Origin: Shigella phage vB_SsoM_113
Sequence record: LR746311
Strand: one strand, 5' to 3'
Length of the DNA: 64,000 bases
Numbering within the stretch: the first letter of the stretch is position 1; each line of letters starts with the position of its first letter. The notes under the pieces were generated by a model. It did no database searches. It had not been told where the DNA came from and saw only the letters and a list, made by a program, of their open reading frames with translations. Made by a program: the position numbers and the translations under genes. This document shows, in pieces, positions 1,738 to 59,539 of this stretch.

Positions 1738-1911
1738 ATGAACGCCCAGACTTGTGAAATAGATTATAATAAAATTCGTTCCTCTAAAGTAGAAATGATG
1801 AGGCGCTTTAAAGAGTCTCATGATAAAGCTAAAGCAGAAGGAACTATAACACATAAACGTATAAAATTTAGAAGCTCTAACGAGCCTCTGTATGGTGTAT
1901 TATGCGGATAG
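1738..1911 (+). CDS. hypothetical protein (57 aa)
   Basis: ATG ORF not in supplied track (under 60 aa); ends at hairpin 1908-1927. Confidence 0.3.
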   Translation: MNAQTCEIDYNKIRSSKVEMMRRFKESHDKAKAEGTITHKRIKFRSSNEPLYGVLCG

Positions 1912-1927
1912 GAGCTTCGGCTCCTAT
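1908..1927 (+). terminator. stem-loop with UUCG tetraloop (ataggagc-ttcg-gctcctat)
   Basis: 8-bp perfect stem read from sequence; weak U tract, so may be an RNA-stability hairpin. Confidence 0.4.
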
Positions 1928-1929
1928 AT

Positions 1930-1953
1930 TGCTTTATAAATTTTTGGTAAAAT
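1930..1953 (+). promoter_or_regulatory. putative MotA-dependent middle promoter upstream of agt
   Basis: TGCTTTA box 1930-1936, 11-nt spacer, TAAAAT 1948-1953. Confidence 0.45.
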
Positions 1954-1977
1954 AAACCAAAACAATGAGGATATTAA

Positions 1978-3180
1978 ATGAAAGTATGCATTTTTATGGC
2001 TCGAGGTCTTGAAGGTTGTGGCGTAACTAAATTTTCTCTTGAGCAGCGTGATTGGTTTATTAAAAATGGTCATGAAGTAACTTTGGTTTATGCTAAAGAT
2101 AAATCATTTACCCGTAATTGCGCGCATGATTATAAATCATTTTCAATTCCGGTTTTATTGGCAAAAGAATACGATAAAACACTTAAGCTGGTAAATGATT
2201 GTGATATTCTAATTATCAATTCAGTTCCTGCTACTTCAGTAGAAGAAGACACTATTAATAACTATAAAAAAATTATTGATAACATTAAACCTTCGGTTCG
2301 TGTTGTAGTTTATCAACATGACCATTCTTCTCTTTCTTTGCGCCGAAATTTGGGATTAGAAGAAACTGTTCGTCGAGCTGATGTTATTTTTAGTCATTCT
2401 GATAATGGTGATTTTAATAAAGTTCTGATGAAAGAATGGTATCCAGAAACAGTTTCTCTGTTTGATGATATTGAAGAAGCACCGACTGTATACAACTTTC
2501 AGCCTCCTATGGATATTGCGAAGGTTCGATCAACCTACTGGAAAGATGTTTCTGAAATTAACATGAATGTCAACCGTTGGATTGGTCGTACGACTACATG
2601 GAAAGGTTTTTATCAGATGTTTGATTTTCACGAAAAACATCTTAAACCTGCAGGACTAAGTACTATTATGGAAGGTCTGGAACGTTCTCCAGCGTTCATT
2701 CCTATTAAAGAAAAAGGAATTCCATACGAGTATTATCGTCTTCATCAAGTAGACCAAATTAAAATTGCTCCTAATTTGCCGACGCAAATTCTCGACCGTT
2801 ATGTAAATAGCGAAATGCTTGAACGCATGAGTAAATCCGGATTTGGTTATCAGTTGAGTAAGTTGGACAAAAAATATCTACAACGTTCTTTAGAATATAC
2901 TCATCTCGAGCTTGGTGCATGTGGAACAATTCCAGTATTTTGGAAATCTACTGGCGAAAATTTAAAATTCCGTGTTGATAATACTCCGTTAATTTCTCAT
3001 GATAGCGGTATCGTTTGGTTTGATGAAAATGACATGGAATCAACATTTGAACGTATTAAAGAACTGTCATCTGACCGAGCTCTTTATGACCGTGAACGCG
3101 AAAAAGCTTATGAATTTTTGTATCAGCATCAAGATTCAAGCTTCTGCTTTAAAGAACAGTTTGACATTATTACAAAATAA
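1978..3180 (+). CDS. agt: DNA alpha-glucosyltransferase
   Basis: 400-aa product MKVCIFMARGLEGCGVTKFSLEQRDWF, recognised as T4 alpha-gt; GAGGA RBS. Confidence 0.93.
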   Translation: MKVCIFMARGLEGCGVTKFSLEQRDWFIKNGHEVTLVYAKDKSFTRNCAHDYKSFSIPVLLAKEYDKTLKLVNDCDILIINSVPATSVEEDTINNYKKIIDNIKPSVRVVVYQHDHSSLSLRRNLGLEETVRRADVIFSHSDNGDFNKVLMKEWYPETVSLFDDIEEAPTVYNFQPPMDIAKVRSTYWKDVSEINMNVNRWIGRTTTWKGFYQMFDFHEKHLKPAGLSTIMEGLERSPAFIPIKEKGIPYEYYRLHQVDQIKIAPNLPTQILDRYVNSEMLERMSKSGFGYQLSKLDKKYLQRSLEYTHLELGACGTIPVFWKSTGENLKFRVDNTPLISHDSGIVWFDENDMESTFERIKELSSDRALYDREREKAYEFLYQHQDSSFCFKEQFDIITK

Positions 3181-3197
3181 AGGGCTTCGGCCCTTTA
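3181..3197 (+). terminator. UUCG-tetraloop hairpin (agggcttcggccct) after agt
   Basis: GC stem with TTCG loop immediately after agt stop; short U tract. Confidence 0.45.
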
Positions 3198-3221
3198 GCT
3201 TTATACGGAGTTTGATATAAT
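3197..3221 (+). promoter_or_regulatory. middle-promoter-like element (AGCTTTA box, 12 nt, TATAAT)
   Basis: AGCTTTA 3197-3203, TATAAT 3216-3221; same architecture recurs at 32800-32824. Confidence 0.35.
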
Positions 3222-3360
3222 GATATTTCTTGGATATGTGATACTTTTTCTCGCATTTTATCTATTCACTAGAGCATGTTGGATTGGGTTCTTTAGCACT
3301 CCGGACGGATTTATTTCAATAATTTTATTTTGCATTTCAATGACGGTTCTTGATATATGA
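3220..3360 (+). CDS. small hydrophobic protein (46 aa)
   Basis: GGAG RBS, ATG 3220; MIFLGYVILFLAFYLF; stop overlaps next ATG (ATGA). Confidence 0.35.
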   Translation: MIFLGYVILFLAFYLFTRACWIGFFSTPDGFISIILFCISMTVLDI

Positions 3361-3980
3361 AAAAATATATAACTTATTTAACAATATATAGTGGAGATAA
3401 ACTTCCTCCTTTTTATATTGGATCTACGTCTTTAGATAGGCATTTAGCTGGATATCATGGTTCAGTTTTATCTAAAAAGTATAAGAAAATTTATAATAAA
3501 GAGCTTTCAGATAATCCTCACTTATTTGATTCATGCATTTTAGCTGAATTTGATACGCGTGAAGAAGCTATTAAATGCGAGTTATATTATCAACGATTGC
3601 ATGATGCAGTTAAAAATCCATTATTCTTTAATATGTCATATGCTGCTCCAAAAGGTTCATTTGGAAGAGATAATAAAGGACAAAATCATCCATTATATGG
3701 TTCTCATAATTGTAAAGGAAATATACATTCACATGATCCATTAACAGGAAAATCTGCCTTTTTGCCTTATATTCCAGAAGGTTATGTAAAAGGAAGGTCA
3801 AATAAATTTAAAGCTTCATCACATAATAAAGGTAAAAAATGGTATAATAACGGAGTTAAGCAAATGTTGTGTCATGAACCTCCTGGTCCTGAATGGACAA
3901 AAGGAAAAATTAAAGAACTGGTTTCAAAAGCAGCTAAATTAGGATGGAAAAGACACCATGAAAATACTAAACTTGGGTGA
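3357..3980 (+). CDS. GIY-YIG family homing endonuclease-like protein (Seg-like)
   Basis: N-terminal IY-x8-YIGST motif; C-terminal basic region with KKWYNNG; 23-nt overlap with gene 47. Confidence 0.7.
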   Translation: MKKYITYLTIYSGDKLPPFYIGSTSLDRHLAGYHGSVLSKKYKKIYNKELSDNPHLFDSCILAEFDTREEAIKCELYYQRLHDAVKNPLFFNMSYAAPKGSFGRDNKGQNHPLYGSHNCKGNIHSHDPLTGKSAFLPYIPEGYVKGRSNKFKASSHNKGKKWYNNGVKQMLCHEPPGPEWTKGKIKELVSKAAKLGWKRHHENTKLG

Positions 3981-4977
3981 TTGGCATTTAGGCGTTAAAG
4001 CTGATGATGAGTGGATTCGCGGTATTCAAATTGATGGAATTAAGCAAGCGATAGAATATTCTAAGAAAAATGGAATTACTGTATGGATTCAATATGGTGA
4101 TATTTTTGATGTGCGAAAAGCAATCACACATAAAACTATGGAGTTTGCCCGTGAAATAGTTCAAATGCTTGATGGTGCTGGAATCACATTACATACTATT
4201 GTAGGAAATCACGATCTCCACTACAAAAATGTAATGCATCCAAATGCTTCTACTGAGCTTTTGGCTAAATATCCTAATGTTAAAGTATATGATAAGCCTA
4301 CTACAGTAGATTTTGACGGATGTTTGATTGATTTAATTCCTTGGATGTGCGAAGAAAATACTGGTGAAATTCTTGAACACATCAAAACTTCATCTGCTTC
4401 TTTTTGTGTTGGTCACTGGGAACTGAATGGATTTTATTTTTATAAAGGAATGAAATCTCACGGTCTTGAACCTGATTTCCTTAAGACTTATAAAGAGGTG
4501 TGGTCTGGTCACTTCCATACTATCTCTGAGGCTGCTAACGTCAGATATATTGGGACACCATGGACACTAACTGCGGGTGACGAGAATGACCCTCGTGGGT
4601 TCTGGATGTTTGATACAGAAACAGAACGAATGGAATTTATTCCAAACAACACCACCTGGCATCGTCGAATTCAATATCCATTTAAGGGGAAAATTGACTA
4701 TAAAGATTTTACAAATCTATCAGTACGTGTTATAGTAACTGAAGTAGACAAAAATCTAACGAAGTTCGAATCTGAACTAGAAAAAGTTGTGCATTCATTA
4801 CGAGTTGTGTCAAAGATTGATAACTCTGTCGAGTCAGATGATAGTGAAGAAGTTGAAGTTCAATCTCTTCAGACATTGATGGAAGAATACATTAATGCAA
4901 TTCCAGACATCACTGATTCTGACCGTGAAGCACTTATTCAATATGCAAATCAGTTATATGTAGAGGCAACACAATGA
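3958..4977 (+). CDS. 47: recombination nuclease subunit gp47 (Mre11-like)
   Basis: 339-aa product MKILNLGDWHLG with phosphoesterase motifs, recognised as T4 gp47. Confidence 0.93.
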   Translation: MKILNLGDWHLGVKADDEWIRGIQIDGIKQAIEYSKKNGITVWIQYGDIFDVRKAITHKTMEFAREIVQMLDGAGITLHTIVGNHDLHYKNVMHPNASTELLAKYPNVKVYDKPTTVDFDGCLIDLIPWMCEENTGEILEHIKTSSASFCVGHWELNGFYFYKGMKSHGLEPDFLKTYKEVWSGHFHTISEAANVRYIGTPWTLTAGDENDPRGFWMFDTETERMEFIPNNTTWHRRIQYPFKGKIDYKDFTNLSVRVIVTEVDKNLTKFESELEKVVHSLRVVSKIDNSVESDDSEEVEVQSLQTLMEEYINAIPDITDSDREALIQYANQLYVEATQ

Positions 4978-58906: not shown

Positions 58907-59539
58907 ATGAATATAGTATATTGGTTTACATTTGAAGACCGTGTCAAAAATAAGACTCCGCCATACTACTATATCGGTAGTAAATTAAATTGCTCATTTG
59001 AGAACGGAATAATATATGACTCTTCCGGAAAGGAATACTGGAGCTCATGTAAACAAAAAAGATTTTTGAATGCGGTAATGCTTCAAAAACCGAGCGTTAA
59101 AATAATTCAAATTGATGATGACTTGGATGTTATTGAAGCAGAACGAAAATACCAACTTGAAGTAAATGCCAGAGATAATCCAGATTATTTCAATCTGGTA
59201 TATGCTGGTGGTGGATTTGGTGTGAGTGGTGAAACTCATCCAGCCAAAGACCCGGAAGTTAGAGAGCATATGAGATTGGCTAATTATATGAACCGTGACG
59301 ATTTTAGACCTTGGAAAACATCACGAGCTAATATAGAGTCTTGGAAATTATCTCATATTGCTTACGAGAATTATGTGTTATTATTATCCTCTAATCTTTA
59401 CGGTAAAACTCCTGGATGGCGAAGAGTTAAAGGTAATATAAATATAACTGATACAACTGCTAAATCGATGGTAAAGTATTTCAACTCAGGTTGGATACCT
59501 CTCGAAGACCCAGAGTATTGCGAATTATGCCAGCTATGA
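58907..59539 (+). CDS. GIY-YIG homing endonuclease-like protein (SegG-like by position, upstream of gene 32)
   Basis: N-terminal ...VY...YYYIGSK motif; paralogous to the 3357 ORF. Confidence 0.65.
   Translation: MNIVYWFTFEDRVKNKTPPYYYIGSKLNCSFENGIIYDSSGKEYWSSCKQKRFLNAVMLQKPSVKIIQIDDDLDVIEAERKYQLEVNARDNPDYFNLVYAGGGFGVSGETHPAKDPEVREHMRLANYMNRDDFRPWKTSRANIESWKLSHIAYENYVLLLSSNLYGKTPGWRRVKGNINITDTTAKSMVKYFNSGWIPLEDPEYCELCQL

Follow-up and report, generated by a model that had tools for sequence, protein, structure and literature searches.

A probable Seg-type free-standing GIY-YIG homing endonuclease gene between genes 47.1 and 47 of Shigella phage vB_SsoM_113

Introduction

What kind of gene occupies the junction between genes 47.1 and 47 of Shigella phage vB_SsoM_113, how it came to be there, and which neighbour it acts on are questions raised by a 207-aa ORF that T4 lacks: in T4, the 47.1 stop directly overlaps the gene 47 start (ATGA), and the endonuclease gene is absent. 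The ORF lies in a 64,000-nucleotide stretch of sequence record LR746311 (the window, numbered from its first nucleotide, one strand, 5' to 3'), which is a segment of a T4-like (Tequatrovirus) genome. An initial sequence-only reading had described the ORF as GIY-YIG homing-endonuclease-like and knew of no seg gene at this position in T4; it was right in this, since 47.1 and 47 overlap directly there.

Free-standing GIY-YIG seg genes belong to the known biology of T4 and move by intronless homing (PMC2988022 section 7), and they are unevenly spread among T4 relatives (PMC2993671 Table 5). T4 segA-F and seg-like genes, as here, lie between conserved genes and are patchy even among close relatives (PMC2993671, PMC2988022), but none of the T4 seg genes occupies the 47.1/47 position. 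Where free-standing endonucleases have been characterised, the cut usually lies hundreds to thousands of base pairs away from the endonuclease gene (PMC2988022).

Results

Layout of the locus

The gene order is 55, small a-gt.x ORFs, a-gt, the 46-aa ORF, the 207-aa ORF, 47, 46.2, 46.1 and 46. The features referred to below, with window coordinates, are:

1978..3180: a-gt
3178..3197, no strand assigned: G+C-rich hairpin AAAGGGCTTCGGCCCTTT 3' of a-gt, given as a rho-independent terminator in records OL960581 and LR215723
3198..3221, plus strand: T4 middle-promoter-like motif GCTTTA-N12-TATAAT, ending on the 47.1 ATG
3220..3360, plus strand: gene 47.1 homologue, encoding a 46-aa predicted membrane protein (phrog_6693), 100% identical to T4 gp47.1
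3357..3980, plus strand: free-standing GIY-YIG homing-endonuclease-like gene, 207 aa
3357..3656, plus strand: N-terminal GIY-YIG catalytic domain, about aa 1-100
3657..3941, plus strand: basic C-terminal region, about aa 101-195
3357..3363, plus strand: left 7-bp repeat ATGAAAA bounding the 601-bp insertion, from the T4 alignment and the UGKSEcP1 empty site
3958..3964, plus strand: right 7-bp repeat ATGAAAA, also the gene 47 start
3966..3975, plus strand: four substitutions at gene 47 nt 9, 10, 15 and 18 (window 3966, 3967, 3972 and 3975)
3958..4977, plus strand: gene 47, for an Mre11/SbcD-like subunit of the recombination nuclease; the neighbour that is conserved and probably the target
58907..59539, plus strand: segG, distant paralogue of the catalytic domain

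The start ATG of the 207-aa ORF overlaps the TGA stop of 47.1 (ATGA), and its 3' end overlaps gene 47 by 23 nt. The sequence-only reading had placed the ORF between agt and gene 47 with this overlap, and all of its coordinates hold; the 46-aa hydrophobic ORF that it saw in front is the homologue of T4 gp47.1.

In T4 (locus L001, 5886..6680), the HNH homing endonuclease gene mobB lies between a-gt.2 and a-gt. It is absent from the window (1900..1978), where the sequence preceding a-gt aligns with the part of T4 that follows directly on mobB, so the set of homing endonuclease genes differs from that of T4 within the same 3-kb stretch.

Fold, conserved residues and C-terminal region

The protein carries T9-I10-Y11, eight further residues, and Y20-I21-G22-S23-T24, on predicted strands E4-11 and E19-25, and its C-terminal half is rich in Lys and Arg, confirming the IY-x8-YIGST motif and the basic C-terminal region read from the letters alone. 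The Pfam GIY-YIG family (PF01541) scored 21.4 bits (E = 3e-4), just below the gathering cut-off of 22.6, and matched 14 of 42 relatives at E ≤ 0.01; this score is the near miss of a divergent subfamily, and it is structural evidence from a predicted model that carries the assignment. Residues 1-100 were modelled by AlphaFold2 at pLDDT above 95, their elements running strand-strand-helix-helix-strand-helix, and the predicted alpha/beta fold has a three-stranded antiparallel sheet, as in solved GIY-YIG domains. In a Foldseek search of the PDB, the I-TevI catalytic domain ranked first (probability 1.0, target-normalised TM-score 0.61) and the UvrC GIY-YIG domain fourth, and the best structural matches of the N-terminal domain were I-TevI, UvrC, Eco29kI and T4 EndoII; a PDB sequence search with the protein gave no relevant match. 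On the predicted model, the assignment of the N-terminal domain as a GIY-YIG fold with conserved Tyr, Glu and Asn positions is solid, and the original GIY-YIG call is thus supported by predicted structure, and weakly by Pfam.

In a 42-member alignment, Y33, G35, S39, L56, F57, A71, E75 and N92 were invariant, and Y7, T9, Y11, G13, Y20, I21, G22, S23, K40 and R68, among others, were at least 90% conserved. In I-TevI, we take the catalytic Glu to be E75, the downstream Asn to be N90, and the motif-B arginine to be R27. E75 and N92 of the present protein were matched to the I-TevI Glu and Asn by position (helix 3 and the following loop), not by superposed coordinates. At the motif-B position the present protein has R28, many relatives have K, N or Q, and SegG has Ser in the alignment; that the well-conserved R68 substitutes for it is speculation.

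The C-terminal half consists of a GxNHPxYG motif, followed by two modules of a beta-hairpin and P-E-G-aromatic-x-K-G-R/K, and gave a pLDDT of 73 when modelled alone. A structure search with the C-terminal region found no solved-structure match or known DNA-binding fold, and no zinc finger or helix-turn-helix was detected in the protein. This half is presumed to bind DNA, because of its charge and the family architecture. NUMOD3 (PF07460) was present in 19 of the 42 relatives and had no match in this protein at E ≤ 1, only the GxNHPxYG remnant at residues 108-115 being left, so that of the two families first proposed for a profile search, GIY-YIG was recovered (below threshold) and NUMOD was not.

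Relationship to SegG and other known systems

The ORF at 58907 is T4 SegG (209 of 210 residues identical), lying between genes 59 and 32. BLASTP of the 207-aa protein against it gave 27% identity over 109 aa, a hidden Markov model of the N-terminal domain matched only itself and SegG (E = 3e-7) among the 108 window ORFs of at least 80 aa, and hhalign of the family profile against T4 SegG gave a 95% probability (E = 3.6e-8, 32% identity over 93 columns). The two share PPxYIGS, the helix with the catalytic Glu, and NPxYFN..YA..G.FG..G..HP, and both are about 210 aa, free-standing, and followed directly by a conserved gene of replication or recombination. They differ in their C-terminal halves, which are unrelated, and in locus and neighbour (gene 32 for SegG, gene 47 here). 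The earlier description of the ORF as a paralogue of the one at 58907 is therefore right for the catalytic domain only, as a distant homology. SegG reportedly cuts T2 gene 32 about 330 bp from its own insertion site, which is said to have been shown experimentally by Liu et al. in 2003; here, in contrast, the only carrier-specific changes in the sample compared abut the insertion.

Against I-TevI, hhalign of the family profile matched only a short NUMOD3-like stretch (10% probability) and not the catalytic domain, so the link to I-TevI is a structural one; I-TevI is moreover encoded in the T4 td intron, whereas the window gene lies outside any intron. NUMOD3-bearing GIY-YIG proteins of Straboviridae have an N-terminal domain about 50% identical to that of the window protein, but they carry NUMOD3 repeats at the C-terminus and lie at other loci, whereas the window protein is without detectable NUMOD3; the relative in Klebsiella phage Mexia (about 53% N-domain identity, NUMOD3 C-terminus) lies in front of the topoisomerase II gene. 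Such a pattern suits a modular design, with one catalytic domain and exchangeable targeting domains.

Homologues and database labels

The protein is encoded at 90% or higher amino-acid identity in about 68 phage records (tblastn, phage collection). A large protein database held 170 homologues, with a tight group of about 205 aa that are 60-76% identical and many others that align over the first ~115 residues only and continue into NUMOD3 repeats; the ORF is not a chance ORF. At E ≤ 1e-3, tblastn matched 174 phage records, well below the total of T4-like records, which exceeds 500; judged from these counts, other seg genes of T4-like phages were evidently not matched. In carriers ESh36, ZCEC15 and KMB22 the protein match falls into two pieces, and some records differ by 1 nt in length across the region; these differences are either homopolymer sequencing errors or early pseudogenes of the endonuclease.

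In PHROGs, the protein falls in phrog_10820 (E = 1e-94), labelled "HNH endonuclease", with a weaker match to phrog_314, "homing endonuclease". GenBank labels vary from "putative homing endonuclease" and "hypothetical protein" to, wrongly, "HNH endonuclease", the last being the name of the homologous gene in RefSeq records NC_054916, NC_054933 and NC_054901.

Distribution of the insertion

Alignment with T4 showed that 601 bp are inserted here (3357..3957), with a copy of the 7-bp repeat ATGAAAA marking either boundary. In the phage collection, the empty T4-type junction was found as a nearly full-length 60-mer match in 444 records, and the occupied right-hand junction in 62. The junction alignment that the sequence-only reading had suggested as a check thus uncovered a presence/absence polymorphism, and universal presence of the ORF at this site in T-even phages, which would have spoken against a mobile insertion, was not found: about 12% of T4-like records carry the gene (about 88% are empty).

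Carriers form no clade in the flanking genes, and their nearest a-gt or gene 47 neighbours are often non-carriers; the carrier fPS-90 has a T4-type a-gt, about 10% diverged from that of other carriers, and gene 47 of carriers PhiZZ23 and NBG2 is closest to that of non-carriers. Among eight copies, chosen to include more divergent ones, pN/pS was 0.067 and pS was 0.093. By this sequence measure, the endonuclease protein is under strong purifying selection, and the substantial synonymous diversity argues against a recent single sweep.

In Escherichia phage UGKSEcP1 (OV877085; locus L033, 2501..2560), the insertion is precisely absent at the 7-bp repeat, the recoded gene 47 codons described below are kept, and gene 47 matches carriers over nt 1-44 and then switches haplotype; the endonuclease gene was probably lost here by deletion at the ATGAAAA repeat, with the altered site retained. 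KNP1 (KX452694), considered as a partly deleted copy, was rejected, the gap being a run of N in an unverified record. Citrobacter phage PhiZZ23 (NC_054901; locus L040, 5365..6219) has a further gene annotated as "homing endonuclease" (284 aa) between 46.1 and 46, which is absent from the window and from T4, marking another polymorphic endonuclease site about 1.4 kb downstream.

Association with gene 47

At least five other groups of phages encode a relative of the protein (49-80% identical) immediately before gene 47, including Salmonella phage SEA1 (Gelderlandvirus; 80% identical, with no a-gt nearby), Klebsiella phage SmallBear (69%), Dhakaviruses QL01 and IME540 (61%), and Aeromonas phage avDM2 (Biquartavirus; 49%), and in phage vB_EcoM_005 the homologue is about 200 bp upstream of gene 47. 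Overlap of the homologues with the gene 47 start is usual (17 or 23 nt where measured), and the nucleotides encoding the C-terminal "H/N-E-N" of the endonuclease also encode ATGAAAAT of gene 47 in these lineages. Since homologues keep the position upstream of 47 even where a-gt is missing from the locus, it is gene 47 that is the conserved partner; the suggestion of a mobile insertion directed at agt or 47 alleles is accordingly retained for gene 47, and a-gt was rejected as a target.

Changes at the 47.1/47 junction

Gene 47 begins ATG AAA ATT TTA AAT TTA GGT in every Tequatrovirus non-carrier examined, the set of non-carriers compared at this start consisting of T4, six IMG/VR loci, and the more distant loci L016, L018 and L019 (gp47 about 72% identical). 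In carriers it begins ATG AAA ATA CTA AAC TTG GGT, with four changes in codons 3-6 that are silent in 47 and alter the tail of the endonuclease (HENTKLG versus HENFKFR). A scan for fixed differences between eight carriers and seven non-carriers, covering about 5.6 kb (-2300 to +3300, counted from the gene 47 ATG), showed that a state shared by every carrier and by no non-carrier exists only at gene 47 nt 9, 10, 15 and 18; nt 1363 comes next, with a difference in only five of the seven non-carriers. The recoded codons were present in 61 of 62 occupied junctions in the phage collection. The sole carrier with T4-type codons, ERS-1 (PP337211), was discounted, because this UNVERIFIED_ORG record has 18 indels within 3.2 kb and its endonuclease ORF is broken by frameshifts. 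In a Dhakavirus-like group (locus L026), too, the differences that set a carrier apart from its closest non-carriers cluster at nt 9-18, and those between a pair of Klebsiella phages (loci L004 and L017) cluster at gene 47 nt 9-21.

These sequence comparisons make the 47.1/47 junction a tentative candidate for the recognition or cleavage site, at somewhat under even odds. The four changes lie no more than 18 nt from the insertion, so tight linkage or co-conversion from the donor explains them as well as immunity does; their effect on the final residues of the endonuclease is a further point against the junction reading; and the usual distance between characterised free-standing endonucleases and their cuts (PMC2988022) means that the junction may not be where cleavage occurs. 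A rather unlikely alternative, though one to be weighed, is therefore an active homing endonuclease that cuts at a distance, in 47, 46 or a-gt, as do SegG and SegF, with the silent changes being a scar of hitch-hiking co-conversion. In keeping with a distant cut, the first 77 nt of gene 47 are identical in a Gelderlandvirus carrier/non-carrier pair, and the ATACTAAAC variant is also found at the gene 47 start in a phage of another group (locus L025), which fits a foreign origin of the junction. Against it, the scan revealed no other position that separates carriers from non-carriers, so a sequence-based immunity site elsewhere between -2300 and +3300 is not visible.

Shortly after the insertion site, two sharply different haplotypes, ATTCGCGGTATTCAAATTGAT and GTTCAATCCATTCAGTTGGAT (IRGIQI to VQSIQL), exist for gene 47 nt 58-93 (window 4015..4050); they segregate among non-carriers as a local mosaic patch in Tequatrovirus loci.

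Expression

The motif GCTT-N13-15-TATAAT occurred 10 times in the window against 1.15 expected, with eight occurrences on the plus strand:

3198, 7119, 14050, 22057, 32801, 54408, 57466 and 58740, plus strand: GCTT-N13-15-TATAAT
26714 and 56997, minus strand: GCTT-N13-15-TATAAT

To judge from this enrichment, the 10 motifs are probably genuine MotA-dependent middle promoters; a sigma-70 promoter scan showed no enrichment (10 found, 12.2 expected). The motif at 3198..3221 is identical in T4 and is an annotated middle promoter in OL960581. Transcription from it would begin within 47.1, and the first complete cistron would be the endonuclease gene here and gene 47 in T4. The upstream sequence and ATGAAAA used by the endonuclease gene are exactly those of gene 47 in T4. 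Neither the endonuclease gene nor gene 47 showed an RNA hairpin masking its ribosome-binding site; the z-scores were positive, that is, the folding was weaker than in shuffled sequence.

Discussion

A stand-alone ORF between conserved neighbours, a presence/absence polymorphism with a precise empty site, and homology to SegG are the marks of a Seg-type gene, and we conclude, with a probability of roughly 75%, that the ORF is a Seg-type free-standing GIY-YIG homing endonuclease gene on a 601-bp insertion between 47.1 and 47. It is somewhat probable that the enzyme is active today. In a mixed infection, it would cut genomes without the gene, in or near the 47.1/gene 47 junction; the break would be repaired from the carrier genome, and the recipient would thereby acquire the gene with its flanking sequences (intronless homing, marker exclusion). 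Carriers would be protected by the insertion, which splits the site, and by the four silent changes in gene 47 codons 3-6. The endonuclease gene would have taken over the original translation start region of gene 47, and it would probably be expressed early or in the middle period along with 47 and 46, read-through adding to transcription from the motif at 3198..3221. In the literature searched, no cleavage or inheritance data for this protein or close relatives were found, nor any named or tested endonuclease upstream of gene 47, many subscription papers lying outside the search.

It is improbable that the protein is a former homing endonuclease that no longer spreads itself and serves another role, among which exclusion of competing phages, regulation or translational coupling of gene 47, and action as a DNA-binding repressor are possible. 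Strong purifying selection at a pS that speaks against a recent sweep would suit such a role, as would conservation, across the phage groups examined, of both the location and the overlap with the start of gene 47, and the occupation of gene 47's original translation start by the endonuclease gene. However, the conserved GIY-YIG residues are retained, and presence in about 12% of Tequatrovirus records with varied flanks is the pattern of a selfish element, not of a useful gene.

That the protein is an HNH endonuclease, as RefSeq and phrog_10820 have it, is almost certainly wrong and was rejected, since the backing comes from database labels, whereas the fold and motifs are GIY-YIG, no HNH family in Pfam matches at E ≤ 1, and other depositors label relatives "GIY-YIG homing endonuclease". 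The label is flagged here as an annotation error that is spreading via RefSeq and PHROG-based pipelines.

Beyond the Seg-type reading, we entertain as a conjecture, and a doubtful one, that the gene belongs to a Seg-type lineage that has kept to a single target in several phage groups, namely the beginning of the Mre11-like gene 47, recognising or cutting its own insertion junction over the start codon, protecting carriers by silent recoding of codons 3-6, and having taken over the translation start of 47. If true, this lineage would differ from other characterised free-standing endonucleases in acting at its own insertion junction, and its expression would be tied to that of the nuclease that resects its breaks.

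The gene is an uncharacterised addition to a well-known class of mobile phage genes, and understanding of the class is unchanged. The catalogue of T-even homing endonucleases gains an element with an easily testable candidate target, the 47.1/47 junction, for which natural alleles exist as susceptible-looking empty sites (T4, T2), recoded carriers, and one recoded empty site (UGKSEcP1). Such endonucleases bias the inheritance of markers near 46 and 47 in phage crosses and in phage engineering. The main interest of the element lies in its long association with gene 47 across phage groups, together with this ready set of natural alleles.
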